64,000 nucleotides of DNA from a virus, in IMG/VR virus record IMGVR_UViG_3300029404_000062; one strand, written 5' to 3'. Position numbers and translations under genes: made by a program. The notes under the pieces are model-generated. The model was given only the letters and a program-made list of their open reading frames with translations, searched no databases and was not told the DNA's origin. Of the stretch, positions 5,322-63,841 are shown in pieces (position 1 is the stretch's first letter; every line of letters starts with the position of its first letter).

Positions 5322-5347
5322 GCAATCAAAGAAAGGAGTTGACGATT

Positions 5348-26975: not shown

Positions 26976-26997
26976 ATTTTCCCCTTTCCCGGCTGCA

Positions 26998-48462: not shown

Positions 48463-48487
48463 GGTAAAATCCTCCGTGTTTTCGTTT

Positions 48488-48572: not shown

Positions 48573-48597
48573 CCCAGAATACCGGGCAGAATGTACA

Positions 48598-48813: not shown

Positions 48814-48941
48814 GTGCTTTTCCTTTCTGGGGCATCCACGCCGCCACATCTTCCCCTGTGTGGGGCGTTGTCGCTTCATTCGGATCGTTTTGCCACCCGT
48901 GGCACAAGCCCCTGTGTGGGGCTGTGTCGGGGGCTGTCGGT

Positions 48942-49133
48942 TTATCTGTTCATCCGTCCCAGCAGGTAGGCTTCCTCCATTGCTTTCTGGATGCCCCAGA
49001 CCGGAACCTCAATGAAGTCCTCGCTGTCATTGTCGCGGGCTTCGAGGTCGCCCCGGCTGTCTACCGCTGCCATCAGGCGCTTGGCGATTTCCAGCAGGGC
49101 TTTTTCTTCTTCCTTGGTAATGTTCTTCTTCAT
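48942..49133 (-). CDS. Hypothetical small protein (63 aa).
   Basis: Behind cassette copy 3. Confidence 0.35.
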   Translation of the reverse strand: MKKNITKEEEKALLEIAKRLMAAVDSRGDLEARDNDSEDFIEVPVWGIQKAMEEAYLLGRMNR

Positions 49134-49149
49134 GGTGGTTTCCTCCGTT

Positions 49150-49232
49150 TTTCTTGGTTTTCCGTTTCGGTATGTGCATATTACCGTCTATGTCACACAC
49201 TATCAAGCGGCTATACTACACAAAGATAGCCG
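49150..49232 (-). repeat. Promoter/leader cassette copy 3.
   Basis: TTTCGGTATGTGCATATTACCGTCTATGTCACACACTATCAAGCGGCTATACTACAC. Confidence 0.55.
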
Positions 49233-49297
49233 CCCGGAACTGTGCGTATTACAGCAGAAGAAAAGGGCTGCCGGCAAGCCCCATGTGTTTCTCTGGC

Positions 49298-49747
49298 TTA
49301 GTAGTCTTCTTCGTCCTCGTAATCTTCCTCTTCGTCCCAGTCATCTTCCTCTTCATCCCAGCTGTCATCCTGGTCTTCTTCCTCATCCTTGAAGTCCCAC
49401 ATATCTTCGGTCGGCTGGTTTCTAAGGTCTGGGTTCTGCTCAACATAGTCGGCAACCGCTCCGCAAAGGATGTCCAGAACCTTTTCGTAGGCTTCCTCAC
49501 TGTAGACTGCCCAGGCATCTGCAGTCAGCTTTGCGATTTTGTCGTTGCCCTTGGCTCCAAGGAACCGCCCTGCAGGGTTGCAGGTTTCCTTGCCGTAGCC
49601 GATGCCCAGCTGGTCGCCGTCGTTGTAAAAGCGGTATCCGATGCGGCTCATTGCCCTTACCAGCTCCCCTGCGAGGCTGTCTGCCTTGCCCGTATCCGGT
49701 ACCAGTTCCTTGAAAAGTTTATTGATGCGGTCTTCATTCTTCGTCAT
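49298..49747 (-). CDS. Hypothetical protein with extremely acidic C-terminal tail (DWDEEEDYEDEEDY). Candidate DNA-mimic/anti-restriction-like.
   Basis: Start MTKNEDRINK behind cassette copy 4. Last ~45 residues are >60% Asp/Glu. Confidence 0.4.
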   Translation of the reverse strand: MTKNEDRINKLFKELVPDTGKADSLAGELVRAMSRIGYRFYNDGDQLGIGYGKETCNPAGRFLGAKGNDKIAKLTADAWAVYSEEAYEKVLDILCGAVADYVEQNPDLRNQPTEDMWDFKDEEEDQDDSWDEEEDDWDEEEDYEDEEDY

Positions 49748-49771
49748 TGTCGTATCCTCCGTTTTTGTTGT

Positions 49772-49848
49772 TTTCCCCTTTCGGTGACTGTATATTACCG
49801 TCACCTCGAAACACTATCAAGCGGCTAAACTACACGATCATTCAATCC
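49772..49848 (-). repeat. Promoter/leader cassette copy 4.
   Basis: CCCTTTCGGTGACTGTATATTACCGTCACCTCGAAACACTATCAAGCGGCTAAACTACACGATCAT. Confidence 0.55.
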
Positions 49849-49949
49849 TGTAATTGTCATATTTATGTGCTTTTCATGCCAGCTTTCGGAAGACAGACAC
49901 GAGCAAAAGGCTGGTCATTTCCAGCCCCTTGCGCCTGTCGGTCTTGCCT

Positions 49950-50210
49950 TTAGCGGATGATTTCGAGGTAGCTTACGTTGCCCCAGCAGTCCGTTCCCTT
50001 GAAGCGGATGCGCTTGTCGTTCTCCCTGTCGAGGGTGAATTTCCGAAGGAGCTTCATCTTCTGGATGCGGTTCAGAAGGTCCTTGCCGTTCTTCGCATCC
50101 TCAACGGCATCCCTGATCTCGACCACCGCACTGTCGCTTCCGTACCAGAGGTTGCTGAGTGCCTCTGGAATTCCGTTTGCAAGATAAAGGTTGATTTTTG
50201 TGTAGGTCAT
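49950..50210 (-). CDS. Hypothetical small protein (86 aa).
   Basis: Co-transcribed with 50226-50432. Confidence 0.35.
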   Translation of the reverse strand: MTYTKINLYLANGIPEALSNLWYGSDSAVVEIRDAVEDAKNGKDLLNRIQKMKLLRKFTLDRENDKRIRFKGTDCWGNVSYLEIIR

Positions 50211-50225
50211 GTTTTTGTTCTCCTC

Positions 50226-50432
50226 TCAAAATGTCATCGTTTCCAGAATCTCATCCATGCCTGCCTCCCAGTCATGGCGGCTAAATTCAATTTTGCTGTA
50301 CATCTCTGCGCTGTCCGGCTCATCGAAAAGCCGGAAGCATTCTCTTGCCAGCTCCTCGCTGGTATGCTGCTGGATTTCATCCGGCTGTCCATCCAGCCGT
50401 GTAAAGGTGATCTCGTAAGTGTAGCGTTCCAT
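50226..50432 (-). CDS. Hypothetical small protein (68 aa).
   Basis: Behind cassette copy 5. Confidence 0.35.
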   Translation of the reverse strand: MERYTYEITFTRLDGQPDEIQQHTSEELARECFRLFDEPDSAEMYSKIEFSRHDWEAGMDEILETMTF

Positions 50433-50437
50433 GTTCT

Positions 50438-50518
50438 TTGCCCCTTTCGTTTTGGTAGCTGTATATTACCGTCACTGCCGGATACTATCAAGCGGCTAAA
50501 GTACACGATCATCTGCCC
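50438..50518 (-). repeat. Promoter/leader cassette copy 5.
   Basis: TTTTGGTAGCTGTATATTACCGTCACTGCCGGATACTATCAAGCGGCTAAAGTACACGATCAT. Confidence 0.55.
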
Positions 50519-50571
50519 CCTGATCTGGAGGATTTATGTGTTTATCCGGGGAGGTTTCCCTCCCCGTTTTC

Positions 50572-50748
50572 TTAGCTGAACATCTCTGCCGTGTCATCGT
50601 CGATCCAAAGGTGCATGCCGTCTGCTTCCATAATCGCATGGTCTTCATGAACCTCGGTGATGATTCCTTCCCGGCTTCCTCTTCCATCAAATTCGTTCCA
50701 GTGCCATGTTGTCTTTCTTCCCTTTTTCCATGTTCTCCAATCAGCCAT
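50572..50748 (-). CDS. Hypothetical small protein (58 aa).
   Basis: Start MADWRTWKKG with RBS GGAGG, behind cassette copy 6. Confidence 0.35.
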   Translation of the reverse strand: MADWRTWKKGRKTTWHWNEFDGRGSREGIITEVHEDHAIMEADGMHLWIDDDTAEMFS

Positions 50749-50761
50749 TCTCCTGTCCTCC

Positions 50762-50842
50762 TTTGCTTTTTGTAGCTGTATATTACCGTCACCGCCCTGT
50801 GATAGCAAGGCCATAAAACGTCATATTATCAACGATCTTTGC
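50762..50842 (-). repeat. Promoter/leader cassette copy 6 (more diverged).
   Basis: TTTTTGTAGCTGTATATTACCGTCACCGCCCTGTGATAGCAAGGCCATAAAACGTCAT. Confidence 0.45.
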
Positions 50843-50958
50843 CCCTCATGTTTGGTACATATATGACCCCTGATTGACTTGCTATATATGTGTTTCTGCG
50901 GCATTATACACACAACGAAAGCAAAGAAAAACCAAACCAAAAACGGAGGACAAAAACC

Positions 50959-51210
50959 ATGAAAAAGACCATTACAGAAGTTGAAACCGCAATCGAAAAC
51001 CGCATCGCAGAGCTTGAAGAAGAATACGAGCTGGACATTTACGACCGCAACGACATCCGGGAAGAAGAATACCAGAAAGCCGGATGGCGGCACGACCCTT
51101 TCCCAGAGGAGCTTGAGGAAGAGGACGAAGAAGAGGAAGAAGATTGGCACTACCACAGCATGGAAGAACGACTGAACGAGGTCGGCATGAGCATGAGGGA
51201 TTTCTTCTAA
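50959..51210 (+). CDS. Small acidic protein (83 aa). Only plus-strand gene in this arm.
   Basis: Start MKKTITEVE after RBS AACGGAGGA. EEEDEEEEEDW acidic stretch; own promoter TTGACT...; followed by a hairpin terminator. Confidence 0.45.
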   Translation: MKKTITEVETAIENRIAELEEEYELDIYDRNDIREEEYQKAGWRHDPFPEELEEEDEEEEEDWHYHSMEERLNEVGMSMRDFF

Positions 51211-51214
51211 GGAA

Positions 51215-51262
51215 TCCCAAAAGGCTCCCCCAGCAGAAGCTGGGGCTCTGCCTCGTATCCCC
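51215..51262. terminator. Bidirectional terminator hairpin between convergent genes.
   Basis: CCCCCAGC-AGAA-GCTGGGGG stem-loop with flanking T/G-rich runs. Confidence 0.45.
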
Positions 51263-51409
51263 CGTTTTGGTTTGGTATGATACACAAAACCGCTGCCAGA
51301 TATTTGTGTACATTATGGCGGCGGTTCTTCTTGCTATCGTTGCTTTATAGAGGTAACATACAGTAAACTGGAAGGGGGTTCTCATTCTTTTGAGGCCCCC
51401 ATTTTCCGT

Positions 51410-51601
51410 CTAATCGGCTTCGCCCTGCATTGCCTGATGCATCACCCTGCGGTTATGCGCCCTGGCTTTCTTTTTCAGGTCTCTTTTCCATCTGCGGATG
51501 GTCACCGCCTTGCAGTGGTTTCTCGACCATTCGTATTCATCCAGAATGTATCTGCCGCCGTGTTCCCTCTCGCCATAAGCCGGCATCTTTCTGTGTCCCA
51601 T
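51410..51601 (-). CDS. Hypothetical small basic protein (63 aa).
   Basis: ORF only. Confidence 0.3.
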   Translation of the reverse strand: MGHRKMPAYGEREHGGRYILDEYEWSRNHCKAVTIRRWKRDLKKKARAHNRRVMHQAMQGEAD

Positions 51602-51672
51602 AGGCCCCTCCTGTTAAACCAAGCCCTCCCGGTCTTTTCTGGCCGAGAGGGTATTTTTCTGATTGTGGTATC

Positions 51673-52044
51673 TTATTCCGGCTTCGTTCCGTCATCCATC
51701 TGGATGACTGCCATCTGCCCGAACATGCTGACGAATGCCTCCGGCACCCAGAAACGTTCCCTGAATTTCCTGAGCAGGTCCTGGGGCAGCTCTGCGAAAT
51801 CTTCCTCGCCCAATCCGCAGATGAAGAAGTTTCCCTTGATGGGCTGCTCCAGTTCCGGGATGTATCTGCTGAACAACTTCTCGGTGAACAGACCGTTGTC
51901 ATCGGTGACCAGGGCGGCGCGTTCTTCCCACGGGTAGGTGGCTGTGATGCAGTCGCAGTTGAGGATGCGGTAGAACTCTTGCAGGGAGTTTTCAATATCC
52001 ACCACCTGCGGATGCTCCATCGGTTTGATCAGAAGAACTTTCAT
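51673..52044 (-). CDS. DUF3846-like hypothetical protein.
   Basis: MKVLLIKPMEHPQVVDIENSLQEFYRILNCD resembles the DUF3846 family common in phage/ICE accessory regions. Start overlaps the upstream stop (ATGA). Confidence 0.35.
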   Translation of the reverse strand: MKVLLIKPMEHPQVVDIENSLQEFYRILNCDCITATYPWEERAALVTDDNGLFTEKLFSRYIPELEQPIKGNFFICGLGEEDFAELPQDLLRKFRERFWVPEAFVSMFGQMAVIQMDDGTKPE

Positions 52045-52508
52045 TCGACCCAGCCCCCTTTCACGATTGCCCAGTCTGCAAGCTGCATCTTCTGCTGTCC
52101 GCCCCATGCAATATCCTCTAACGCTTCCTCCGTTCCGCAGCGGTTGCAGATCTGAATGTCCGCCCTTCGACTGAGTGCCTGCTGCTGATGGGCGTAGCAG
52201 TCAGGATTTGCTCCGCACCTGGGGCAACGTGGTCCGGTCTGTCGCGTTTTTCCAAGCCGGTCGAGCGACACCTTGACCTCGGCATCCGTTGCCACACGGT
52301 GGCAACTGTCCGCGCCGTAGGAAATGTTCAGATGGCTTCCGGTGTCCCAGCTCACTAAGATGTTTCCGGCATCATCAACCCCGTTGCAGGTTCCCTGCGT
52401 TCCGATGGGCGGTGCCTGCCTGTCATCCATCTCATCGAGGATGATCCGGCATCCGACCGGGAACTCTTTTCTCAACTTCTTGACCATTTTCTGATCTGCG
52501 AAATTCAT
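52041..52508 (-). CDS. DUF4314-like protein with C-terminal zinc-ribbon.
   Basis: VGCRIILDEMDDRQAPPIGTQGTCNGVDDAGNILVSWDTGSHLNISYGADSCHRV (DUF4314-like) plus CPRCG...CNRCG. Confidence 0.45.
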   Translation of the reverse strand: MNFADQKMVKKLRKEFPVGCRIILDEMDDRQAPPIGTQGTCNGVDDAGNILVSWDTGSHLNISYGADSCHRVATDAEVKVSLDRLGKTRQTGPRCPRCGANPDCYAHQQQALSRRADIQICNRCGTEEALEDIAWGGQQKMQLADWAIVKGGWVE

Positions 52509-52984
52509 GACTGCACCTCCCCGATCATCTTCTGGGCGGCATCCTTATCCATGCATTCCTTCAGCGCACCTTCGAGGATGTGCATCGGGAAGTGGAATGC
52601 CTTGTAGCCGTCATGCAGAACTTTGTAGTAATACCGGCTCGGTGCGCGGTGCCCGAAGTCGTTTTCCATGATGTAGACCATTGCGGTCACCATCTCCGGC
52701 TCTGCCCCTTCCCGGAGCAGTTCAATGTTCAGATCTTCCTTGCGGTAGTAGTTCGGGTAGCCCTCATAGAGGTCGAGGTTTCCTTCGTCCCTTTCCGAGA
52801 TCTCCCACACCAGAACCGGCGTGTTCTTCTTCGGGTTCGGTGCGATGGTGGCGCAGCCGCGGAACAAAAGCTCCCAGCCGGCCAGCACCGCCTGCCCTGC
52901 AATTTTTGCATCCGGGCATCGGTCTGCCATCTGCTCCACCGACAGGTTGCTGCCGTAGGCGATGTAATATTTCTTGTTCTTCAT
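52505..52984 (-). CDS. Gamma-glutamyl cyclotransferase-like (GGCT/AIG2-fold) protein 1.
   Basis: YYIAYGSNLSVEQMADRCPDAKIAG... matches the GGCT signature YxAYGSNL. Start MKNKKYY. Confidence 0.65.
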   Translation of the reverse strand: MKNKKYYIAYGSNLSVEQMADRCPDAKIAGQAVLAGWELLFRGCATIAPNPKKNTPVLVWEISERDEGNLDLYEGYPNYYRKEDLNIELLREGAEPEMVTAMVYIMENDFGHRAPSRYYYKVLHDGYKAFHFPMHILEGALKECMDKDAAQKMIGEVQS

Positions 52985-53114
52985 TTGAATCTCTCCCTTC
53001 GGTTTTCTCCGCTCTTGTCTGGCGGTATGGTATATATCACTCTTTTGCCCTGATTTATCAAGGCCGATGAGCATCATATACTGCACAGTGTTTTTTTCCT
53101 GTGATCGTGTACTC

Positions 53115-53636
53115 TTACATCATCTGCCGCTTCTTCAGATACCGGATGGCTTCCGCCCTTCCGATGCTGGCTGCCAGTCCACGCTTCAGTGTGTCCAGCG
53201 GAAATTCCCAGTCGCTGTATCCGCCACGCAGCAGTTCAAAATACTCGGCATCCGGGCAGCCAAGCCTCCGATCCTCGTGCATCACATAAGCGATGCATGG
53301 CTTTGCCTTTTTCATGCGGTTCCCGTTCAGGTTCCAGACCGGAAGCTGGAACTGCTTCTTATAATAGTATCTTGGGCAGCCTTCGTATCGGTCTAGCAGG
53401 AGCTCATCGTATTCCGAGAGCTTCCAGACCACCGCCGGTACGCTTTCATTGGCATCCTGCTCGATGGTGGCATAGCAGCCGGTCTTACTCTTTTTGAACA
53501 GGAGCCGGTAGCCCATGATCTCGGTCGTGCCGACCACCACAGCGTAAGGGCATCTCTTTCCCATCCGTTCCATGTCGAGGTTGCTTCCGTAGGCAAGGTA
53601 ATATCTGGATGGGTTTCGGCTGATCAGTTCAAACAT
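53115..53636 (-). CDS. Gamma-glutamyl cyclotransferase-like (GGCT/AIG2-fold) protein 2, paralog of the preceding gene.
   Basis: RYYLAYGSNLDMERMGKRCPYAVVVG...; start MFELISRN. Confidence 0.65.
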   Translation of the reverse strand: MFELISRNPSRYYLAYGSNLDMERMGKRCPYAVVVGTTEIMGYRLLFKKSKTGCYATIEQDANESVPAVVWKLSEYDELLLDRYEGCPRYYYKKQFQLPVWNLNGNRMKKAKPCIAYVMHEDRRLGCPDAEYFELLRGGYSDWEFPLDTLKRGLAASIGRAEAIRYLKKRQMM

Positions 53637-53865
53637 CTGCCTCACCGTCCTCCCTGCCAGTGAACTCCACGCCCTGGAAATCCTCTTTCCCAAGCTCGAT
53701 CTGGCTGTCCCGCCACCAGTCCTCTGCCACACGCTGGGCTTCCTCCACGGTCGGCTCTTTCATCTCGGATTCATAAATGGTCACCGTCCTCTGGTAGGTC
53801 TCGGTGATGATCACCTTAAAGGCTCTGCCGCCCGGTGTGTTTTCATTTTTTAACGTGCTTTTCAT
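53629..53865 (-). CDS. DpnD/PcfM-like small protein.
   Basis: 78 aa; FKVIITETYQRTVTIYESEMKEPTVEEAQRVAEDWW pattern typical of the DpnD/PcfM family seen in conjugative/phage accessory regions. Confidence 0.4.
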   Translation of the reverse strand: MKSTLKNENTPGGRAFKVIITETYQRTVTIYESEMKEPTVEEAQRVAEDWWRDSQIELGKEDFQGVEFTGREDGEADV

Positions 53866-53932
53866 AAACCTGCACCTCCTTCTACCACCTCAAGGGCGGT
53901 TGCCCGCCCAAAAGGTGCCCGTGCATCCCGGC

Positions 53933-54868
53933 TTATTTGTTCCGCCAGGATGCGTTGCCCTCCATGTTCCGCAGAAGGATCTCCCTTGCCGTTGCAAATT
54001 CATCCCCGATGAATCCCAGCCTCAGCATCCAGCACCGCATCGCGTACTTTTCGTTGTCGGTCTGCTGGGGCTTCGGGCTTGCCGTCCTGACCATCTTGGC
54101 AAGCTGGCTCATTGCGAGGCAAAGCTGGATGTAGGCTTTCATCTCACCGGCATGCAGTCCGTTGCGCTTTCCGTCCGCTGGGTCTGCAAATTGGAAAAGG
54201 CGGAATTCAATGGTTCCTTTTGTAAAGGTGGCATGAAGGTTCAGCATATGGTATCGGCTTGAATTGTAATGCTGGCTTCTGCCGTAGTCTGCACCGTTAC
54301 CTTCGTACCAGATGTCTTCCAGCCTGTGCATGGTGGTCGGCTTCTCGCGGTTCAGCCGGTCGAGGAAGCGGTGGTTGACCACCTGGCAATAATGTCCGGT
54401 GCGCCCCGCGTCGATCCGGATGGCTCTGCCGATCTGCTGTTCGTGCGCCGCCATGATGTTCACAAGGTTGCGGATGGTCTTTGCGGTGTGGTCGCCTTTG
54501 CCAATGTGAATGTGGACTCCGCATCCGCGGCTTGGGCTGCTCTTTGCGCCTGCCTTGCGGAGCAGTCGGATAATTTCCTGCAGGGGTTCGATGTCGTCGT
54601 AGGTGAGGATCGGGGTGACCAGTTCGCATTTTTCTGCGTCCGGTCCGTAGATGCTCACATCCCTCTGGAATTTCCAAACCCTGCCCTGTCCGTCCTTGCA
54701 AGCCCAGCTGTAATATCCGTACTCGCTGGCCGCGTTCCATGCTCTGGTTCCGAAGTACTCGGCGACCTTTCTTGCCGCTTTTTCTCTGGTGATGTTGTTC
54801 ATCTCGATCTCAACTCCGATGGTCTGGTTCTTCATGGCTTCAATCTGCTCTCTTGTTTTATCGTTCAT
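53933..54868 (-). CDS. Amidoligase (glutamine-synthetase/GCS-like carboxylate-amine ligase, Amidoligase_2 family).
   Basis: Metal-binding GVEIEM (ExE), CGVHIHIG (HxH), and TIEFRLFQ (E-x-R) motifs in the order expected for the GS-like amidoligase fold. Start MNDKTREQ behind cassette copy 7. Confidence 0.6.
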   Translation of the reverse strand: MNDKTREQIEAMKNQTIGVEIEMNNITREKAARKVAEYFGTRAWNAASEYGYYSWACKDGQGRVWKFQRDVSIYGPDAEKCELVTPILTYDDIEPLQEIIRLLRKAGAKSSPSRGCGVHIHIGKGDHTAKTIRNLVNIMAAHEQQIGRAIRIDAGRTGHYCQVVNHRFLDRLNREKPTTMHRLEDIWYEGNGADYGRSQHYNSSRYHMLNLHATFTKGTIEFRLFQFADPADGKRNGLHAGEMKAYIQLCLAMSQLAKMVRTASPKPQQTDNEKYAMRCWMLRLGFIGDEFATAREILLRNMEGNASWRNK

Positions 54869-54897
54869 GGTATGTTCTCCTTTGTTTTTTCCTTGTT

Positions 54898-54996
54898 TTC
54901 CCTTTCGGTATGTGCATATTACCGTCAGGTGCGGATAATAGCAAGGATATAAAAGAACATATATTCGACAAATATCGAGAGGAATGATCGTGTACA
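54898..54996 (-). repeat. Promoter/leader cassette copy 7.
   Basis: CCCTTTCGGTATGTGCATATTACCGTCAGGTGCGGATAATAGCAAGGATAT...GATCGTGTACAT. Confidence 0.5.
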
Positions 54997-55100
54997 TTTC
55001 TGCAGTTTATCCGCTTGATAATGTACATTTTCAGAGTTAATATCGTTACAATGAAAGAGGGTCTCGCATATTTTCCGTCCCCCATTGGGAGCTTGGGAGC

Positions 55101-56285
55101 TTACGCTCCCGCCTCCAGCATCTGCGCCGTGTCTGCCCCACAGTCGGGCTGTGTCGGCTCGGCATCTGCTGATGCGATCGTTTCCCCTGCGGAGGCACTG
55201 CCCTCCTGTGCCGCCTGTTTCGCGGCTTTCAGGGCATCCCGTTTTGCCTTTTCCCTTGCGAGGAACTTCTGTGCTTCCTCATCCGTGCGGAAAGCCGCAT
55301 GGCCGGAAAGATTCTCCATGAGGATCTTGCGTGTTTCTTTGAAGTCCGGACCGTTCATCCCCAGCCGCAGGAGCCATGTGCGGAGTGCGTATTTCTCATT
55401 CTCATCGTTGACATCCTTTGCCTGGATGCGCTTCTGGCTGATCGCCTGCTGGTTCATCAGCACCGCCAGCTGTGCAAAAGCCGTCAGGTGTTCGTGGTCC
55501 GGTGCGGTCGGGAAGCCGGTAAAGGTGACCTTCTCGGTGGTGATTTTCAGGCCTTCCAGTGCAGCACCATGTTCAGTCTCATAGTCGCTTACCGCGTTGA
55601 TGAAGTTCATGATGGCAAAGGTGCAGCTATCGTCTTTCAGCTTCTCCACCAGTCCCTCTTCCACATGGAAGTTTCCGCCAGTCGCCTTGCCGATGAGCTT
55701 GCCGCGGCTGTAAAGAAGGTTGACCAGGTTGCGGAGAGTCACACCGTTGTGCTGGCTGACCGGGAATGCAAGTTCCAAGTCCAGCGGCACCTCTTCCGGC
55801 TGATCTTCTGTCTCCTGCGATTCTGCATCCGGCTCATCCTCTATGGTATCATCCTCAGCCGTATTGTCCGGCTCCAATGCATCCTCGGCTCCTGCTTCCG
55901 CAGGTTCATCTTCTGCGGTATCTGCATCTTCGGATTCCTGCTCGTCCAGAACCTCCAGCTCTGCTTCGGGCATCTGCTCAGTTTCCGCTTCGGTCACAGG
56001 CTCCTCATCCATATCCGCTGTCAGCTCTGTGTCCTCCGGCTGGTCATCCGTGCTCTCAATACTCTCGCCGCCGCGGATCAGTCCCTCATTCAGCAGGGTC
56101 GTCAGCAGCTCGGCATCTGCATTCTCCGGCTCGACCAGAAGGTTGCCATTCCGGTCGATGGTGTAGCTCCCGATGTCGTAAGAATACAGAGGTGCTTTGG
56201 TATAGTAAGGGTGGATGCCGGTCAGCTCCTCCATGCGTTTTGCGAGGGTCTTTCTCTCGGCTACGTTCAGTTTAAATTTCAACAT
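55101..56285 (-). CDS. Degenerate amidoligase paralog: retains the C-terminal half but lacks the catalytic N-terminal motifs; carries a ~120-aa hyper-acidic insert.
   Basis: C-terminus EKYALRTWLLRLGMNGPDFKETRKILMENLSGHAAFRT aligns with the amidoligase's EKYAMRCWMLRLGFIGDEFATAREILLRNMEGNASWRN; TLRNLVNLL vs TIRNLVNIM. Region 70-190 is D/E-rich (TDDQPEDTELTADMDEEPVTEAETEQ...). Confidence 0.5.
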   Translation of the reverse strand: MLKFKLNVAERKTLAKRMEELTGIHPYYTKAPLYSYDIGSYTIDRNGNLLVEPENADAELLTTLLNEGLIRGGESIESTDDQPEDTELTADMDEEPVTEAETEQMPEAELEVLDEQESEDADTAEDEPAEAGAEDALEPDNTAEDDTIEDEPDAESQETEDQPEEVPLDLELAFPVSQHNGVTLRNLVNLLYSRGKLIGKATGGNFHVEEGLVEKLKDDSCTFAIMNFINAVSDYETEHGAALEGLKITTEKVTFTGFPTAPDHEHLTAFAQLAVLMNQQAISQKRIQAKDVNDENEKYALRTWLLRLGMNGPDFKETRKILMENLSGHAAFRTDEEAQKFLAREKAKRDALKAAKQAAQEGSASAGETIASADAEPTQPDCGADTAQMLEAGA

Positions 56286-56508: not shown

Positions 56509-58737
56509 TTATTCTTCCAGACCTGCACACCACGCGATGCCGGCCAGAACGAAGTAAACACAGGGCAGTGCCACGCCGTTGCCCCAGAGTTTGTACTCTG
56601 CCGCATCCGAATACGGGTCAGCCAGCCATTTGCGGATCTGTTTCTCTGTCTTTGGTTTCTTCGCCTGCGTCACGATCCTGCGGTGTGTTTCAAACACATC
56701 TGCCCAGAATGCCAGCTCTTCATCGGTCGGATTCTCCGCGCCGAGGTCACTGCACCACCAGTCCGGAAAGCCCTGCAACCGGGCGCATTCGATTGGTGTC
56801 AGTCGGCGGACTGTGTAGCTGACATCCTGCGGCACCGGTGCAATGGTGGTCGGGTCTTTGTAGTCCCGTGCCATCAAGGTCGGCGCAACCTCTTTCTCCA
56901 CCTGCATATAGGAGCCGGTAGTCATGGCATAGACGCTTTCCGGGACACAGACTGCATGGCGGTCAGTGGCATCCAGCGTGAAGCAGACATCCTCATTAAC
57001 CCCGTCCCCCTGCGGGCCGTTCTCGTCCTTGCGGCCGATCATGTTGCCCTGCAGCACAAAGGTCTGCATCTGGTCGCTCCGGGTCGCCATGAGTGCGCCG
57101 GACTTTCCATGCAGGTCGATCAGCTCATTGCGCTGATTTACGTGGAATGCGGTCACATCTTCCGGCTGTGCCACGAAGGTCTGCTGCTTCATCCCCGGCT
57201 CTGCTGCCAGTGCTGCTGACTTATCTCCCAGATCCCAGACTTCATCCCGCTGATTCTGGGTAAAAGCCACTGCCGGTGCGCCGCCGTGGGTACAGGACAA
57301 AGGCGGTGCCACCTGTTCGTCCACCGTGCAGTTCGACTTTCCGCCACCCTGATCCACGCAGACAACAGGTTCACAGATGCACAGCCCTCCCTGATTGCAG
57401 GTCGGGTCACCACCGCTGCGGTCGAGTGTCCGAGAGGTGCTGGCTTCATAGAAACCACTGTGCGGATTGTCACTCATCATGGAGTGGCTTGCCTTGGAGC
57501 AGACACCGTAGGCTTTCAGAACGAACAGCGTCTGGTCATTGTTGCAGCCCAGAGTTGCCGATTTTTCCTCTTGCCAGATCGCGCCCTTTCCGCCTCCATC
57601 ACATCCAGAGCGGATCTTCAGTGTGACCGCCGGGGAGTTTTCAACATCTTTCACCAGGCTTTCCACAGAGTTTTCAACTCCCATGACCAGCGGAACATTG
57701 CCGCCGCCTGTACCGCACCGGCTGGTCAGCGTCTGCACCTTGCCATCCTCGGAAATCTTCACCCGGCTGTCCGCAGGATGATTTTCCAGTGCAATGGCGG
57801 CCGGAACCACACCGGCCCGGAGTGTCGGTGAGCGTTCTTCCTCGTACCCGATGCTTCTGGCATTGGCGGAGTGTTCAGTGCAGAAGCCTGCCGCCTCCAT
57901 AACGCAGGGTGGATGCCCATGATCCTCTGCCCGGAGCGTCCCGGTCACTTCATGGGATACATCCATCTGTGCTCCACCCTGATCATTCAAGACGATTCTT
58001 CCGTTTCCACAGCCTGTCTCTCCAATGCTTCTTTCAGCACAGGCGGCAGCTCTTTGCCACGCACGGAAGCTCTCCGCAGAATACCGAGACACGCCTTCGG
58101 ACTCAAATAATATTTCTTTGGCACCCCGACCTGCAAAATCTGCGACAAGGAAGATTCGTTTTCTTCTTTGGGGTACGCCCCACCACTGTGCATCAAGGAC
58201 TCGATATGCGACGCTCCATCCGTCTCCCAGATAGTAGTCGGCATCGGGCCAGCCTTTTTTCGCAGGCGCAGGCACCTCGGCGGCCGGTTCTTTAACACCG
58301 ATGACGGCTTCGAGGACTGCTTTGAAGTCCTGCCCTTTGTTGGAGGAGAAAGCTCCCGGCACATTTTCCCACACGATGAATCGCGGTTGTTTTCCATTGG
58401 TTGCACACCTCATTTCCTTCACGATTCGGATTGCTTCATAAAACAGGCTGGACCGTGAACCATCCAGACCATCTCGTTTCCCGGCGATAGACATATCCTG
58501 GCATGGACTGCCAAAGGTGATGATGTCCACGGGCGGCAGGTCTGCGCCGCTGATGGCAGACACATTTCCGTAGTGTTTCATCTGGGGCAGCCGCTTCGTT
58601 GTTACCCGGATGGCGAACGGCTCCACCTCACTGCTCCAGACAGGCTCGATTCCAGCAAGCATTCCACCCAACGGAAAACCCCCGGAGCCATCGAAGAGGC
58701 TGCCGAGGGTCAAAGTCTTATTCTGTTCTTTGCTCAT
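56509..58737 (-). CDS. DNA (cytosine-5)-methyltransferase, 742 aa with a very long target-recognition region (multispecific phage-type).
   Basis: Motif I LFDGSGG, motif IV GSPCQDMS, motif VI ENV. ~450-aa insert between catalytic motifs and motif IX/X. Confidence 0.85.
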   Translation of the reverse strand: MSKEQNKTLTLGSLFDGSGGFPLGGMLAGIEPVWSSEVEPFAIRVTTKRLPQMKHYGNVSAISGADLPPVDIITFGSPCQDMSIAGKRDGLDGSRSSLFYEAIRIVKEMRCATNGKQPRFIVWENVPGAFSSNKGQDFKAVLEAVIGVKEPAAEVPAPAKKGWPDADYYLGDGWSVAYRVLDAQWWGVPQRRKRIFLVADFAGRGAKEILFESEGVSRYSAESFRAWQRAAACAERSIGETGCGNGRIVLNDQGGAQMDVSHEVTGTLRAEDHGHPPCVMEAAGFCTEHSANARSIGYEEERSPTLRAGVVPAAIALENHPADSRVKISEDGKVQTLTSRCGTGGGNVPLVMGVENSVESLVKDVENSPAVTLKIRSGCDGGGKGAIWQEEKSATLGCNNDQTLFVLKAYGVCSKASHSMMSDNPHSGFYEASTSRTLDRSGGDPTCNQGGLCICEPVVCVDQGGGKSNCTVDEQVAPPLSCTHGGAPAVAFTQNQRDEVWDLGDKSAALAAEPGMKQQTFVAQPEDVTAFHVNQRNELIDLHGKSGALMATRSDQMQTFVLQGNMIGRKDENGPQGDGVNEDVCFTLDATDRHAVCVPESVYAMTTGSYMQVEKEVAPTLMARDYKDPTTIAPVPQDVSYTVRRLTPIECARLQGFPDWWCSDLGAENPTDEELAFWADVFETHRRIVTQAKKPKTEKQIRKWLADPYSDAAEYKLWGNGVALPCVYFVLAGIAWCAGLEE

Positions 58738-59504
58738 ACAGCCTCCTCTCCGAGCATCTGCTCTGTGGCTTTCTGGTAGAAATCTCTGGACACTTCAAAT
58801 CCGTAGCTGTTGCGTCCCAGCTCTCTGGCAGCCCGAAGTGTCGAACCACTGCCGGCGCACGGGTCAATGACCACATTGCCCTCATCGGTAAAGGTTTCGA
58901 TCAGGCGTTTCAGCACGGACACCGGTTTCTGGGAAGGATGGATCTTCGGATATTCTTTGCCGTCCCGCTTCCAGTCAAACCAGTTGAAGATCATGTGGGG
59001 CTTGCCGTCTTCTCCGAGGTTACGGAACTTCGGCAGCTTGTTCCGGTACAGCACCAGAGCGTATTCCGTTGCACCCACGATCTTCATGTTGGCTTTCAGG
59101 ACTTGCGGACTGTAGTTCTTGCAGAACACCAGCGGGATATAATTCTTGAAGCCGTACTTCTCCGCTTCAGTGATCACCTTCGGGATCTGCTGGAAAGCAC
59201 AGAAAACGATCATGCACGGCGCATCTTTCTCGCCTTTTCCCGGCTCTTTCTTGAGCAGCCGGTTGCAGAAATGGAAATATTCTGCAATGTTGAAAGTGAA
59301 GTCGGTATTGAATGCCGCTTTCCGTGCCTTATCGCTCTCACCATTCTTGTTGTCCCCGTCCACATACCAGTCCGGTCTGCTGGCGTAGAAGTCCATTCCT
59401 ATGTTATACGGAATGTCGGCGATCACCAGCTGTGCCTTGGGGATGTTATAGGACTTGAAATTCTGGAAGTTGTCATGGATGAGGACACATTTCACATCAG
59501 CCAT
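58734..59504 (-). CDS. Amino-DNA methyltransferase (N6-adenine or N4-cytosine), beta-class motif order.
   Basis: Motif IV IADIPYNIG precedes the AdoMet motif VIDPCAGSGSTL. Confidence 0.75.
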   Translation of the reverse strand: MADVKCVLIHDNFQNFKSYNIPKAQLVIADIPYNIGMDFYASRPDWYVDGDNKNGESDKARKAAFNTDFTFNIAEYFHFCNRLLKKEPGKGEKDAPCMIVFCAFQQIPKVITEAEKYGFKNYIPLVFCKNYSPQVLKANMKIVGATEYALVLYRNKLPKFRNLGEDGKPHMIFNWFDWKRDGKEYPKIHPSQKPVSVLKRLIETFTDEGNVVIDPCAGSGSTLRAARELGRNSYGFEVSRDFYQKATEQMLGEEAV

Positions 59505-60765
59505 CGGCACCCACGCTTTCCGGCTCAAAGGTCGCCACCTCATCGAACTTCAGCCTCTGACCATCCCGGAGAACACACACATCCTCATAGCGGCCTTCAC
59601 TGTGTTCGATATACCGTTTCACGATGACATCCACGAATTTCGGGTCCAGCTCAATGCCCCGGCAGACACGGTCGGTCTCCTCACAGGCGATCAGGGTCGA
59701 GCCGCTACCGAGGAACGGGTCAAGGACGATGCCGTTGGTCATGGTAGAGTTGCGGATGGGATAGCTCATCAGACCGATGGGCTTCATGGTCGGATGGTCC
59801 TTGTTGGATTTCGGACGGTCATACTCCCAGATGGTCGTCTGCTTGCGGTCAGAATACCACTGGTGCTTGCCCTTCTGCTTCCAGCCATACAGACACGGTT
59901 CGTGCTGCCACTGGTAAGGACTGCGCCCCAGCACCAGTGCGTTCTTCTTCCAGATACAGCACCCGGACAGGTAGAACCCTGCATCCTTGAACGCCTTTTG
60001 GAAGTTCAATCCTTCGGTATCTGCATGGAAGATGTAGATGGAACCGTCATCCGCCAGATGGTCATGCATCTGTTTGAACGCCGCCAGCAGGAACTCGTAG
60101 AATTCCGAGTCGCCCATGTTGTCGTTCAGGATCTTGCCGGCCGTTTCTTCCACATCGACGTTGTACGGAGGGTCCGAAAGCACAAGGTTGGCTTTCACGC
60201 CGTCCATCAGGGTGCCGTAGCACTCTGCTTTCGTGGAGTCACCGCACAGGACTTTGTGCTTGCCCAGCATCCAGAGGTCACCCTCTTTGGAGAAGCACGG
60301 CTGCTTCAGTTCGGATTCCACATCAAAGTCATCTTCCTTGACTTCCTTGCTGTGTACCTTGTTGAACAGCGTCTCGATCTCAGGCGGGTCAAAGCCGGTC
60401 TTGCCCAGATCAAAGTTGGAATCCTCGATGTCTTTGAGCAGGTCGGCCAGCAGCGAATCATCCCACGCGCCTGTAATTTTGTTGAGGGCAATGTTCAGCG
60501 CCTTTTCTCTGGTCTTGTCGATGTCCACCACCGCACACGGAACTTCGGTGTAGCCCAGTTCCATCGCAACGGTCAGTCGCTGGTGACCGCCGATGATTGT
60601 CATGTCGGCATTGACCACCAGCGGGTCGGCAAAGCCAAACTCCGTGATGGAGTTCTTGATCTTCTCGTACTCTTTGTCTCCCGGCTTCAGCTTTTTCCGG
60701 GGATTGTATGCCGCTGGCTTGAGTACGGACACCGGCAGCATCTTCAGTTCAGCAGTTGTTTTCAT
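59497..60765 (-). CDS. ParB-like nuclease domain fused to an amino-DNA methyltransferase (DPPY).
   Basis: N-terminal ParB-like KMLPVSVLKPAAYNPRK... with GGHQR motif; methyltransferase motifs LSDPPYNV and LDPFLGSGST. Confidence 0.8.
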   Translation of the reverse strand: MKTTAELKMLPVSVLKPAAYNPRKKLKPGDKEYEKIKNSITEFGFADPLVVNADMTIIGGHQRLTVAMELGYTEVPCAVVDIDKTREKALNIALNKITGAWDDSLLADLLKDIEDSNFDLGKTGFDPPEIETLFNKVHSKEVKEDDFDVESELKQPCFSKEGDLWMLGKHKVLCGDSTKAECYGTLMDGVKANLVLSDPPYNVDVEETAGKILNDNMGDSEFYEFLLAAFKQMHDHLADDGSIYIFHADTEGLNFQKAFKDAGFYLSGCCIWKKNALVLGRSPYQWQHEPCLYGWKQKGKHQWYSDRKQTTIWEYDRPKSNKDHPTMKPIGLMSYPIRNSTMTNGIVLDPFLGSGSTLIACEETDRVCRGIELDPKFVDVIVKRYIEHSEGRYEDVCVLRDGQRLKFDEVATFEPESVGADG

Positions 60766-60786
60766 GTAAGCTCCTCCTTACTGGAT

Positions 60787-61020
60787 TTACACACGCATGA
60801 CCTGAGAGAACGGCACGAAAAAGGAGCCGAACAAAAAGCCCGACTCCAGTTTCTCGCTGTCTCCGCCATTCTCCGACTGCGGCCGTTCCGACATCTTGCA
60901 CCATTCTGGATCTTTTCCGTTGATGGATGCCAGAACTCTTTCTTCCGCTTCGTCAATCGTATGTACACAGATTTCTCCGGTGTTGAACATGGGGAACACA
61001 CCGATCACCTTTTCACTCAT
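60787..61020 (-). CDS. Hypothetical small protein (77 aa).
   Basis: ORF only. Confidence 0.3.
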   Translation of the reverse strand: MSEKVIGVFPMFNTGEICVHTIDEAEERVLASINGKDPEWCKMSERPQSENGGDSEKLESGFLFGSFFVPFSQVMRV

Positions 61021-61516
61021 CTTCCGTTGCCTCCTTCATCCCGTATCGATAATCCCAGTAACAGTTCAGACTGCAGAACTTCCGTTCCCTCCTCTGCTCA
61101 TCCACTGCCCGGAACTCCCGTCCACAGTTTTTACAGATGACCAGCCGGGAAGTTTTGCCTTTCTTACCATACCGGTTGAAATACTCTTTTTTGCACTCCC
61201 CGGAGCAGAACCGTCGTAAGCCACCTGCGCCTTTTTGCGCCGCGATCCGTCCGCAGACCGGGCATCTCCGATCCGGAGTGATCTTAGGCGGCATCAGGTG
61301 ACAGTTCCCACTCTCCGGCAACCCCAGTTCCCGGCAGTAATCCGTGACCTGTTCCAAAGAAAGCCCGGTGTCTTCTGCGATCTCCACACATTCAACCCCG
61401 GCAAGCCGCTGCCTTCTGACTTCTTCCCGCTCCGGGCGGTACTCATATCCCTCAAACACACAATCCAGCCGCACACCATTCTGTACGACATCACGCTCCA
61501 CGCTCAGCGGTTCCAT
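61013..61516 (-). CDS. Zinc-ribbon protein with HTH-like N-terminus and repeated CPxCG...R(R/K)FCSxxC motifs. Candidate phage regulator.
   Basis: Start MEPLSVERD with RBS GGAAGGAG. SLEQVTDYCRELGL HTH-like; RCPVCGR...RRFCSGECKKEYF and ICKNCGREF...RKFCSLNCYWDY. Confidence 0.4.
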   Translation of the reverse strand: MEPLSVERDVVQNGVRLDCVFEGYEYRPEREEVRRQRLAGVECVEIAEDTGLSLEQVTDYCRELGLPESGNCHLMPPKITPDRRCPVCGRIAAQKGAGGLRRFCSGECKKEYFNRYGKKGKTSRLVICKNCGREFRAVDEQRRERKFCSLNCYWDYRYGMKEATEDE

Positions 61517-61799
61517 CTGCTTCACTCCTTCCCTTGTTTGCACAGGCTCGGCTGCAATATTTCCGTTCCAGACCATACTGGTGCCGGTAGGAAAACTCCC
61601 TGCCGCACACCGGACAGATCTTTGACCGCACGGTCTTCCAGTTCTCTGGTTTCGGGTGGGTGTTGTTCCATCTGGACCGACATTCCGGCGAGCAGAACTT
61701 TCTTGGCCGGCCTTTATGGTTCGGTACGATTGCCGTACCGCACTGAGGACAGAAGGCAAACGCCATGTCCTTGATCATCTCAGCCGTGTAATCCTCCAT
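61491..61799 (-). CDS. Zinc-ribbon protein, paralogous motif architecture (CPQCG...RKFCSPEC; CPVCGREF...RKYCSRAC).
   Basis: 102 aa; same duplicated Cys motif as the downstream gene. Confidence 0.4.
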   Translation of the reverse strand: MEDYTAEMIKDMAFAFCPQCGTAIVPNHKGRPRKFCSPECRSRWNNTHPKPENWKTVRSKICPVCGREFSYRHQYGLERKYCSRACANKGRSEADGTAERGA

Positions 61800-62201
61800 C
61801 TGTCCTCACCGTCCTCTCATTTTTCGCCGTTTCTGCGGCATTTTCTATGGAAAATTTCAAAATACATACGAAAAGCGGCGAAGCAGGGATCGGCTCCGTT
61901 CCGCCAGGTTGAATTGTTGTTGCGGCGGCCGATCTGCGCACGCCTCCTGTTCCTCCCGGAACAAGCTAAAATGTGCAAAAGCTCCCTGTTTACGAGAGGT
62001 TTCACACACTTTGGTTCATTTCGGGGAAAAAGAATGGCACCGGAACCAAAGCTCCGATGCCTGTACATTTTCCTTGTTCATTTTGCGCCGTTAATCTGCT
62101 GACCCCCGGCCTATGAATTTTGCGGTTTTTCACGCAAAAGGGGCCACCGGTCTCCGTGAGACTTCACCACAGAGAAGTGACCCCGGCCCCCGGTGGGGTA
62201 A

Positions 62202-62561
62202 TCAGTAGGTGTATGTCGGATTGATGTCTTCCGTCAGGGTCTTCCGGTCGTGGCATTCTTTGCAGAGTGCCTGCCAGTTGTCCTCGTCCCAGAAAAGGCG
62301 CTGGTCGCCACGGTGCGGTTTAATGTGATCCACCACCGTAGCTCTGACATACCGGCCGTTCTTCATGCACTCCACACACAGCGGGTGCGCTTGCAAATAT
62401 GCCTTGCTGACTTTTTGCCAACGGCGTGTGTAACCACGCTTGGCAGCAGGTCTTGTTACTTCCGGGTGGAGAGGCAGGTGCTTCTCACAGTACAGCCTTC
62501 CGGGTTCCACCAGCTCCGGGCAGCCGGGGTGTCGGCACGGTACCTTTGGTTTGAACGGCAT
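62202..62561 (-). CDS. HNH endonuclease (phage-type).
   Basis: VDHIKPHRGDQRLFWDEDNWQALCKECHDRKT (HNH motif with His/Asn and Cys ligands); 119 aa. Confidence 0.8.
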   Translation of the reverse strand: MPFKPKVPCRHPGCPELVEPGRLYCEKHLPLHPEVTRPAAKRGYTRRWQKVSKAYLQAHPLCVECMKNGRYVRATVVDHIKPHRGDQRLFWDEDNWQALCKECHDRKTLTEDINPTYTY

Positions 62562-62564
62562 GGC

Positions 62565-63632
62565 TTACTCCTCCCACGGAAGACCGGCCTTACCGAAGTG
62601 ACCGTAGGCACTGACCTTGTTGTAGTCCACATCCAGAAGACCCAGCCGTTTGGTGATACCCTGCGGGGTCAGGTCGTAGCTGTCGTTGATGTAGGCTTGG
62701 ATGAAGTCCAGTGCTTCATGCTCCGTACCAAAACACTCCACCGACACACCCACCGGCTGAACCACGCCGATGGCGTAGGCCAGCTGGACTTCACACTTGT
62801 CAGCGTAGCCGGCCTGCACGATGTCCTTGGCGATCTTCCGTGCCATGTATGCAGCGGAGCGATCCACCTTGGTGGGGTCTTTGCCGGACAAAGCACCGCC
62901 ACCGATACAACCGATGCCGCCGTAGGTATCACACGCCAGCTTCCTGCCAGTCACACCACAGTCGGCAAAGCTGCCGCCCAGCACGAATCGGCCGGTCGGG
63001 TTGACCAGCTTCTGGAAGCTCCCGTCCAGTCCGTACTCACAGGCGGCAAGCACCATCATGGATTCGATGATGTGCCGGAAATCGCTGACCTCCACATCCG
63101 GGCTGTGCTGCACGGAGCAGAGGAAAGTGGTGATGCGTCCGGTGTCATAATCATAGCTGACCTGTGCCTTGGCATCTGCACGGAACATCCTGCTGGGATG
63201 CGCTTTCAACAACTGCAGAAACTTGGTGGCGACCATGTACGGAATCGGCATCTGCTCCACCGTTTCGTTGGTGGCATAGCCATACATGATGCCCTGGTCA
63301 CCGGCACCGCCCTTGTCCACACCAAGTGCAATGTCCGGCGACTGCTTGTCCACCAGAATGCCGATGCGGAGCAGCTCTCTCATATCAAAGCCCAGCTTCT
63401 CGGCGCCGATGCGGGTAAGCACATCGTGGACGATCTGGTGGTAGTTCGGCTGGTAGTCGGTGGTGACCTCGCCAGCGATAATAAGCTGGCTCTTTTTCAG
63501 CAGGCACTCGATTGCCACGCGGGCGTTCTTGTCATGCTGAAGGATGTCTGTCACGATGGCATCTGCGATCTGGTCACAGATCTTATCAGGATGTCCATCG
63601 CTGACCTGTTCACAGGTAATAATCTTACTCAT
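62565..63632 (-). CDS. metK: S-adenosylmethionine synthetase (MetK), phage-encoded, translationally coupled to the HNH gene.
   Basis: DGHPDKICDQIADAIVTD at the N-terminus, GAGDQGIMYGYA, and the Gly-rich C-terminal loop match MetK. ORF 62565-63761, start taken at MSKIITCEQ with RBS GGAGG. Confidence 0.8.
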   Translation of the reverse strand: MSKIITCEQVSDGHPDKICDQIADAIVTDILQHDKNARVAIECLLKKSQLIIAGEVTTDYQPNYHQIVHDVLTRIGAEKLGFDMRELLRIGILVDKQSPDIALGVDKGGAGDQGIMYGYATNETVEQMPIPYMVATKFLQLLKAHPSRMFRADAKAQVSYDYDTGRITTFLCSVQHSPDVEVSDFRHIIESMMVLAACEYGLDGSFQKLVNPTGRFVLGGSFADCGVTGRKLACDTYGGIGCIGGGALSGKDPTKVDRSAAYMARKIAKDIVQAGYADKCEVQLAYAIGVVQPVGVSVECFGTEHEALDFIQAYINDSYDLTPQGITKRLGLLDVDYNKVSAYGHFGKAGLPWEE

Positions 63633-63683: not shown

Positions 63684-63841
63684 TGCCCACAAATAGGCTC
63701 CCACAAAGACTGCCTGCCATGTTCCAATATTGCTTTTACAGTGTAAATGCGATGCCCACAAAGATTGGGCCGCCCAGTGAAAAAGTAACTTTCAAATCTT
63801 CTTGTTTTCTTTTCTTGTAGCAAGTAGCAACTTGTAGCTAC
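63684..63841. promoter_or_regulatory. Operator-like repeat cluster upstream of metK: three (G)CCCACAAAG boxes and the palindromic block CTTGTAGCAAGTAGCAACTTGTAGCTAC (contains perfect palindrome GTAGCTAC).
   Basis: Boxes at ~63684, 63698, 63753; palindromic block at 63815-63841; AT-rich surroundings. Confidence 0.4.

Follow-up and report, generated by a model that had tools for sequence, protein, structure and literature searches.

A phage-type S-adenosylmethionine synthetase beside a DNA methyltransferase operon in a prophage of a gut Clostridia bacterium

Why would a temperate phage carry its own S-adenosylmethionine (SAM) synthetase next to several DNA methyltransferases? The question is raised by a stretch of viral DNA of 64,000 nucleotides (nt) (IMG/VR record IMGVR_UViG_3300029404_000062; hereafter the window), the prophage of a gut Clostridia bacterium, in which metK and a gene for an HNH endonuclease precede an operon with three methyltransferase genes (positions 56509 to 63632). 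A reading made from the sequence alone had proposed that the phage-borne metK secures the SAM supply for protective hypermethylation of the phage genome, or else counteracts SAM-depleting host defences. Pfam domains and the coordinates of the open reading frames (ORFs) bear out all the genes that this reading had named, intact and on the minus strand. Its interpretation is partly supported: phage-type MetK travels with methyltransferases in related phages, and it is plausible that MetK feeds phage DNA methylation. The locus is one more ordinary case of a phage module that is very common and already published.

The position of metK is that of a phage gene. Downstream of the block lie the genes for TerS, TerL, a portal, a ClpP-type protease, an HK97-type capsid, a tape-measure protein of 1984 amino acids (aa) and an endolysin; past the structural genes come three large serine recombinases and then, at 1-5.5 kb, genes of the host, one for a response regulator and one that is phosphoglucosamine-mutase-like. 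On the other side, the window edge falls 368 nt upstream of metK, and the assembly itself stops there, because the window matches, at 100% identity, the end of a 127-kb Joint Genome Institute (JGI) contig (L005). Two further contigs, 99.99% identical to the window from 63873 onward, encode DNA polymerase A, a DUF932 protein, SNF2, PemK and an 809-aa D5-type primase directly upstream of metK. Since replication genes precede metK and packaging genes follow it in near-identical contigs, metK sits within the phage, where the replication module borders on the packaging module. The possibility that the region is not prophage and that metK is the host's only, housekeeping copy, which the sequence-only reading had raised itself, is refuted: phage genes flank metK, the exact MetK protein is found behind the D5-type primase, PemK, SNF2 and DNA polymerase A in other contigs, complete virome phage genomes have metK at the same position, the window holds a full set of phage structural genes with serine recombinases, and canonical bacterial MetKs are longer and no more than 49% identical to this one. 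A sharp mosaic junction was also observed at 63873, upstream of which otherwise 99.99%-identical contigs hold a different gene, and several assemblies break 320-390 nt upstream of metK.

The gene neighbourhoods of related MetKs carry the association. Near-identical loci are abundant in our samples, and the counts given here and below are descriptive, not independent tests. Among 50 IMG/VR loci of phage-type MetK with at least 5 kb of downstream sequence, 48 encode a ParB-methyltransferase fusion, 47 an HNH endonuclease, 34 a C5-methyltransferase and 23 an amidoligase; a ParB-methyltransferase is likewise present in 8 of 10 loci of divergent, canonical-length viral MetKs with the same downstream extent. 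With one genome per species, MetKs at least 53% identical to the one studied here occur in just eight loci, six of which have module genes within 10 kb, against none of the next 72 loci (0/72), which encode canonical bacterial MetKs (364-382 aa, at most 49% identical). The second group of viral MetKs (IMG/VR contigs L153, L157-L165 and L167-L171) has the canonical length of 370-390 aa; its members are about 52% identical to bacterial MetKs and 43-48% identical to MetK of the window. They too have a ParB-methyltransferase as immediate neighbour, and the TerL that accompanies some of them is just 27-29% identical to that of the window.

A tblastn search found MetK matches in 136 GenBank phage records, 90 of which are Streptococcus prophages with the annotation 'S-adenosylmethionine synthetase'; the gut phages of Candidatus (Ca.) Heliusvirales labelled 'NatCom' match at 61-62% identity. 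Matches in Helicobacter 'phages' were discarded as host genes flanking a prophage insertion site. In PV036444 and other NatCom records the MetK homologue is mislabelled 'peptidase', and in several of them the large C5-methyltransferase is a 'hypothetical protein'. TerL is about 76% identical to those of Streptococcus Javan and phi-Ssu phages and of Clostridium phage NatCom_42228; the Pfam types of the portal, capsid and protease agree as well, and the replication markers of Ca. Heliusvirales (DNA polymerase, helicase, SSB), outside the window, would have to be sought in the near-identical contigs, where replication genes were seen. We read the element as a temperate siphophage, integrated in a Clostridia genome, of the TerL lineage that includes Ca. 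Heliusvirales and Streptococcus Javan/phi1207.3-type prophages. The combination of MetK and C5-methyltransferase is already published for this lineage (de Jonge et al., 2024, PMC11283538; Kieft et al., bioRxiv 10.1101/2021.01.05.425418), and the module is not new. In particular, metK and dcm were reported on the same viral genomes, and viral MetKs were described as having conserved motifs, purifying selection and clades apart from bacterial ones (Kieft et al., bioRxiv 10.1101/2021.01.05.425418).

The sequence-only reading was right in taking metK for a complete SAM synthetase gene with the HNH gene right behind it. The three-domain architecture is complete (PF00438, PF02772 and PF02773, the S-AdoMet_synt N, M and C domains), and the protein scores 392.3 bits against the TIGR01034 metK equivalog (cut-off 309.4) and matches phrog_1569 (E 3e-132). 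Residues 4-354 align to Escherichia coli MetK (PDB 7ll3; E 3e-92), with GHPDK, GAGDQG, DAKAQV, NPTGRF, DCGVTGRK and GGGALSGKDPTKVDRSAAY retained; the substrate- and metal-binding motifs GHPDK, E42, GE(I/V)TT, GAGDQG, DAKxQV, NPTGRF, DxGxTGRK and GGGAxSGKDPxKVDRSAAY are all present and invariant across 12 phage and bacterial MetKs. MetK is under purifying selection (dN/dS, the non-synonymous divided by the synonymous substitution rate, of 0.07), as are the ParB-methyltransferase (0.04) and the HNH protein (0.11-0.15), and the enzymes of the block look functional. The metK ATG stands eight bases after GGAGGA; a 398-aa ORF opening at a TTG and reaching 63761 was rejected as an over-extension, an artefact of mechanical ORF listing. 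The HNH ATG follows the metK stop by 3 nt, with a Shine-Dalgarno sequence, GGAGGAG, inside the last metK codons. Rfam searches (gathering and E-value thresholds) detected no SAM riboswitch upstream of the phage metK and no other RNA family, and ARAGORN no tRNA; the TTTGTGGG repeats of the metK leader (Table 1) are a possible candidate for a regulatory site.

The second proposal of the sequence-only reading was that the enzyme counteracts SAM-depleting host defences; it might likewise restore SAM removed by the SAM lyase of a competing phage. SAM pools are a known battleground (T3 SAM lyase against BREX and type I systems), and a distinct compact lineage of MetK might escape inhibitors aimed at the host enzyme. 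However, the active-site gating loop from GVD to GAGDQG, which has 2 residues against 15-20 in most Bacillota MetKs, is equally short in 13 bacterial MetKs of our sample, and we ruled it out as a phage-specific trait; moreover, our literature search turned up no SAM-depleting defence of a host, and the manipulations it did find are those of phage SAM lyases, which remove SAM. We regard this proposal as very improbable.

The 742-aa C5-cytosine methyltransferase has an architecture that fits that of a modular, multispecific phage enzyme, as had been suggested, because it combines an enlarged array of units with blocks gained and lost among close relatives. The core motifs follow the canonical order (FDGSGG, 15-20; GSPCQ, 76-80, with Cys79; ENV, 124-126; QRRKR, 190-194; RRLTPIE, for RRLTPxE, 644-650; GNG, 719-721) and are all invariant in the homologue alignment; the protein matches the PADLOC orphan methyltransferase PDLC03715 (REBASE-derived, about 719 positions) with E 7e-281. 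Between motifs VIII and IX lies a variable region of 449 aa with about 11 'TL'-type units resembling target recognition domains, anchored on a T/A/P-L dipeptide at residues 267, 305, 336, 372, 395, 437, 479, 509, 548, 587 and 620. The TL dipeptide occurs nine times in this region, for 1.45 expected, a count attained by none of the shuffled sequences (0/20000). Homologues range from 711 to 825 aa. In 120 of them that, indels apart, are at least 87% identical, nine combinations of presence and absence were counted for five blocks of 13-40 aa, none of which falls outside the variable region; this gain and loss of blocks is the strongest evidence for a modular architecture. A hidden Markov model (HMM) built from the two most alike units (490-524 and 529-563) recovered just those two; the remaining units share a short motif and not alignable sequence. 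A PDB sequence search with the last two units, aimed at assigning targets, returned a generic motif IX match and a weak match to an uncharacterised E. coli enzyme.

Table 1. Features of the methyltransferase/metK block and of other parts of the prophage (positions in the window)
Feature	Position	Strand	Evidence or remark
TTTGTGGG repeats, three, metK leader	63686..63762	-	3 of the window's 6 copies, within 80 nt upstream of metK
metK, compact methionine adenosyltransferase, 355 aa	62565..63632	-	Pfam, TIGR01034, phrog_1569
HNH endonuclease, 119 aa	62202..62561	-	PF01844, E 5e-10; phrog_144, E 1e-37
Terminator-like hairpin after HNH	62036..62061	-	11-bp stem, 7 G-C pairs, then T-rich tail
Zn-ribbon protein, 102 aa, two CxxC...CSxxC units	61491..61799	-	phrog_1271, E 1e-17; phrog_2308, E 2e-17
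Zn-ribbon protein, 167 aa	61013..61516	-	phrog_2308, E 2e-20; paralogue of the 102-aa protein
77-aa protein, no assigned function	60787..61020	-	gene call also in L003-L007
ParB_N + N6_N4_Mtase fusion (beta-class amino-methyltransferase), 422 aa	59497..60765	-	PF02195 + PF01555
Second beta-class amino-methyltransferase, 269 aa	58734..59543	-	PF01555, E 1e-24
C5 DNA_methylase, 742 aa	56509..58737	-	PF00145 match split in three stretches by a large insert
Amidoligase-like protein, 394 aa	55101..56285	-	long acidic linker
Amidoligase_2 protein	53933..54997	-	
GGACT/AIG2-like protein	53115..53732	-	
GGACT/AIG2-like protein	52505..53086	-	
Nmad4 domain protein	48178..48462	-	'nucleotide modification associated' domain
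TerS	46930..47415	-	Terminase_4 (P27) type; PF05119/PF03354/PF20441 jointly cover TerS + TerL
TerL	45305..46930	-	packaging pair TerS/TerL (45305..47415) closes the block
Large tail-region protein	23670..27011	-	C-terminal GDSL lipase/acylhydrolase domain
Large tail-region protein	21224..23506	-	C-terminal GDSL lipase/acylhydrolase domain
Serine recombinase, 782 aa	15862..18210	-	prophage integrase end
Serine recombinase, 766 aa	13519..15819	-	prophage integrase end
AbiLi-like AAA_21 ATPase	11666..12817		PADLOC PDLC02335, E 2.5e-31
AAA_25 ATPase	9404..10453		between recombinases
Serine recombinase, 613 aa	7552..9393	-	prophage integrase end

The two other methyltransferases (Table 1) limit the earlier description of three enzymes of different chemistries: one enzyme is of the 5-methylcytosine (m5C) type, as described, but the other two belong to the same beta-class amino-methyltransferase family. 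In the ParB-methyltransferase, PF02195 covers residues 6-89 with a GGHQR sequence (GxxR box) and PF01555 residues 193-382, with DPPY (198-201) before FLGSGS (351-356) in the beta-class order; it matches phrog_498 (E 7e-188) and the PADLOC MTase_II profile PDLC03229 (a REBASE-derived type II methyltransferase family; E 3e-172). The second amino-methyltransferase, with DIPY (43-46) before CAGSGS (229-234), is facultative and is missing from L012 and several viral loci. We take the motif IV forms DPPY and DIPY to be more like those of N6-adenine than of N4-cytosine enzymes. The ParB-methyltransferase and amino-methyltransferase ORFs overlap by 47 nt, and the amino- and C5-methyltransferase ORFs share an ATGA; because of these overlaps, the three ORFs are consistent with one operon, in line with the sequence-only reading. 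Upstream of them, the 102-aa Zn-ribbon protein is kept in related loci, the gene for its 167-aa paralogue is also called in L003-L007, and the 77-aa protein has no family match in Pfam or PHROG. Pfam, PHROG and PADLOC profiles recognised no restriction endonuclease partner in the module.

What, then, does the HNH gene do between metK and the operon? A terminator-like hairpin and a gap of about 400 nt follow it, and therefore metK-HNH is probably a transcription unit apart from the methyltransferase operon, which divides the module outlined by the sequence-only reading. The gap (61800..62200) has no called gene and contains the hairpin; this region gave no Rfam family match and is a candidate location of a late promoter or cos site. 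TerS of the P27/Terminase_4 type is usually paired with an HNH protein, and both the HNH motif and a Terminase_4 TerS are found in the window, where the HNH gene and TerS/TerL lie 14.8 kb apart; in related streptococcal phages the interval contains Zn-ribbon and methyltransferase genes only (about 3-5 kb). The HNH gene also stands within about 1-2 kb upstream of the ParB-methyltransferase homologue in most of the related viral loci that have it (59/60). From this constant position and from general knowledge of HK97-type phages, the HNH protein is most likely a terminase-associated nuclease of HK97-type cos packaging and not a restriction partner.

The same constancy could be taken further, with HNH, ParB-methyltransferase, TerS and TerL forming one packaging device in which the ParB-fused enzyme marks or nicks DNA to license or regulate cos/pac cleavage; protection from restriction would then be secondary and MetK would merely serve the ParB-fused enzyme. 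Dam methylation is known to regulate cleavage at the P1 pac site. Besides the proximity of HNH and ParB-methyltransferase and the type of TerS, this idea gains from the smaller streptococcal phages, which have the block directly upstream of TerS and TerL. It gains as well from two published activities: a Bacillus cereus ParB-methylase nicks DNA non-specifically, according to the citation of that work in PMC5512222, and enzymes that modify double-stranded DNA can be activated by ParB-like proteins of phages (PMC13229309). However, it leaves the facultative many-unit C5 enzyme and the second amino-methyltransferase unexplained, and in the window the ParB-methyltransferase and TerS are 12 kb apart, with other genes in between. 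We consider such a device quite unlikely.

With moderate confidence, we favour the interpretation of the locus as a packaging-proximal DNA-modification block, whose operon methylates progeny DNA against restriction while MetK tops up SAM. During lytic growth, the operon (the two Zn-ribbon proteins, the 77-aa protein and the ParB-, amino- and C5-methyltransferases) would methylate the replicated phage DNA ahead of packaging. The C5 enzyme, with one catalytic core and about 11 interchangeable tandem recognition units, would mark several unrelated sites, and the two amino-methyltransferases would probably add adenine marks, the combination protecting the genomes of the progeny, once in the next host, against many type II-like restriction systems. 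The compact and complete SAM synthetase of the separate metK-HNH unit would top up the methyl donor during this burst of methylation. We infer the expression timing, the target specificities and the anti-restriction role, and presume that any benefit of MetK would come through these methyltransferases; what we observed directly are the identities of the domains, their intact catalytic motifs, the purifying selection, the order of the genes, the phage setting, and the way in which relatives conserve the block and vary it by modules.

Several findings weigh against the proposed role of MetK. Reciprocally, among 60 loci of ParB-methyltransferase homologues with at least 6 kb of upstream sequence, HNH is present in 59/60 and MetK in 27/60. 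With 33/60 loci lacking it, MetK is dispensable for the methyltransferase battery: the strict functional link implied by the sequence-only reading is unsupported, and we rejected MetK as an obligate partner of the ParB-methyltransferase. Its presence follows the identity of the ParB-methyltransferase to that of the window: 16 of the 17 closest loci, 10 of 17 in the class of 76-90% and just 1 of 26 in that of 60-76%; many of the loci without MetK still have a C5-methyltransferase. Likewise, MetK was found in 58.9% of Ca. Heliusvirales genomes versus 67% for the C5-methyltransferase (de Jonge et al., 2024, PMC11283538). A large part of the synteny may be due simply to shared ancestry in a single TerL lineage. 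The terminator-like hairpin stands between metK-HNH and the operon that MetK would feed, and extra SAM would also favour SAM-dependent restriction, as type I systems and BREX need SAM. As for the C5 enzyme, an AlphaFold2 model from a 14-sequence alignment was unusable (mean predicted local distance difference test score, pLDDT, of 28.6).

By the same reciprocal scan, HNH plus ParB-methyltransferase, placed upstream of TerS and TerL, is the near-invariant core of the module, to which MetK, the C5 enzyme, the second amino-methyltransferase and the amidoligase/GGACT genes are added facultatively. MetK is almost never found without methyltransferases, which are often found without MetK. This one-sided dependence fits an auxiliary gene whose benefit relies on the methyltransferases, but shared ancestry in a lineage where the ParB-methyltransferase is near-universal predicts the same pattern.

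It is here that a metabolic role has to be weighed. MetK could be a lysogenic-conversion or auxiliary metabolic gene that alters SAM, methionine and sulfur metabolism of the host, including autoinducer-2 and polyamines, in the resident prophage, and that lies beside the methyltransferases through inherited gene order only. In Streptococcus agalactiae, deletion of a homologous prophage metK altered aggregation, glycocalyx and biofilm of the lysogen, and plasmid-borne metK restored these phenotypes in part (Renard et al., PMC8223999), which points to a role beyond phage DNA methylation and is a further difficulty for the methylation reading; viral metK was also read as organosulfur auxiliary metabolism (Kieft et al., bioRxiv 10.1101/2021.01.05.425418). 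MetK is optional among relatives, and metK-HNH, between the mosaic junction and the terminator-like hairpin, resembles a moron cassette. Nevertheless, no sigma-70-like promoter was found upstream of metK on the minus strand, the gene has the replication module on one side and the packaging module on the other, away from the lysogeny end, and two MetK lineages independently adjoin ParB-methyltransferases, which no canonical bacterial metK locus does among the 72 mentioned above. A purely metabolic role appears unlikely to us.

A bolder form of the favoured reading takes MetK as a dedicated SAM generator for high-flux hypermethylation, a mirror of the T3 strategy, recruited at least twice (the two MetK lineages) beside ParB-methyltransferases, and the C5 enzyme, which has 11 units here and more in relatives with extra blocks, as the most multispecific DNA methyltransferase described, its set of targets being re-tuned in gut phages by block exchange; we put this forward tentatively and with more doubt than belief. 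If MetK does sustain self-methylation, very common gut and streptococcal temperate phages would raise their methyl-donor supply to escape restriction, and a C5 enzyme built of blocks would offer portable modules for m5C recognition, a toolkit supplied by nature. In its present state, the analysis mainly confirms a published gene association and adds anatomical detail, with no new type of system.

Other parts of the prophage were also annotated (Table 1). The stretch from the C5 gene to TerS (48178..56285) encodes two amidoligase-type and two GGACT/AIG2-like proteins, DUF4314 and DUF3846 proteins and an Nmad4 protein; the amidoligase could represent a further modification pathway. One contig, L006 (ENA scaffold_883, 4448..6051), is 99.98% identical through metK and the ParB-methyltransferase. 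Behind the latter it has a 129-aa ORF and then a TerL shortened to 405 aa, while the amidoligase block, the C5 enzyme and the second amino-methyltransferase are all missing; it is either a deletion variant or a misassembly. The two GDSL-bearing tail-region proteins are possibly receptor- or envelope-modifying tail enzymes, and the serine recombinases with the two ATPases between them may be defence cargo or a second integrated element.

Among known systems, the closest are named phages of the same lineage. In Clostridium phage NatCom_42228 (PV036444) the genes are likewise arranged as MetK-HNH-...-ParB-methyltransferase-C5-methyltransferase-...-TerS-TerL. The arrangement in Streptococcus phage Javan20 is comparable: MetK is followed by one adenine and one cytosine methyltransferase, and these by TerS and TerL. 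MetKs of the named Heliusvirales, Javan, phi1207.3 and phi-Ssu phages are 56-62% identical to that of the window. Beyond these relatives, the present prophage adds a second amino-methyltransferase and has a longer C5 enzyme (742 aa, where that of Javan20 has about 417 aa and that of NatCom_42228 about 640 aa). What our analysis adds to the published gene set is the anatomy of this multi-unit enzyme and the view of MetK as an optional satellite of an HNH/ParB-methyltransferase core.

We also compared the C5 enzyme by sequence with the methyltransferases of the Bacillus phages SPR, rho11s, H2 and phi3T, whose genes were fetched for this purpose. Like the enzyme of the window, they have a single catalytic core with the canonical motif order and an enlarged region between motifs VIII and IX, in which tandem units with an x-T-L/V-x-A/T signature are gained and lost between relatives. 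A grammar of the form S/A-x-T-L-T/S-A is shared, with SPTLRA, QTLTSRCGTGGG and FTLDATDRHAV here and SPTLTT, TTLTSQSVGGLGG and FTVNTIDRHGV in the Bacillus enzymes. However, the variable region has 449 aa here, whereas the Bacillus enzymes, which are experimentally multispecific, have 215 aa (SPR) or 279 aa (rho11s and H2), and it holds about 11 units versus the 3-4 motifs visible in those enzymes; the similarity between units is marginal, the best local match (FTLDATDRHAVCV versus FTVNTIDRHGVAV) having E 0.07 in a four-sequence database.

Fusions of ParB-fold domains to N6_N4 methyltransferases are enriched in phages (PMC12704722). The ParB-methyltransferase of the window has the two-domain architecture and prophage location of such fusions, as in the B. 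cereus ParB-methylase Bce_0392, but unlike the others it is set in a block with HNH and, optionally, MetK. Finally, the SAM lyase (SAMase) of phage T3 is also a phage gene product acting on the host SAM pool in a restriction-modification context. It is unrelated to MetK and works in the opposite direction: T3 destroys SAM and inhibits the host MetK, and in this way escapes BREX and type I systems, whereas the phage studied here encodes a SAM synthetase. Phages that raise SAM, if MetK indeed sustains self-methylation, would follow the opposite of this textbook strategy of SAM destruction.

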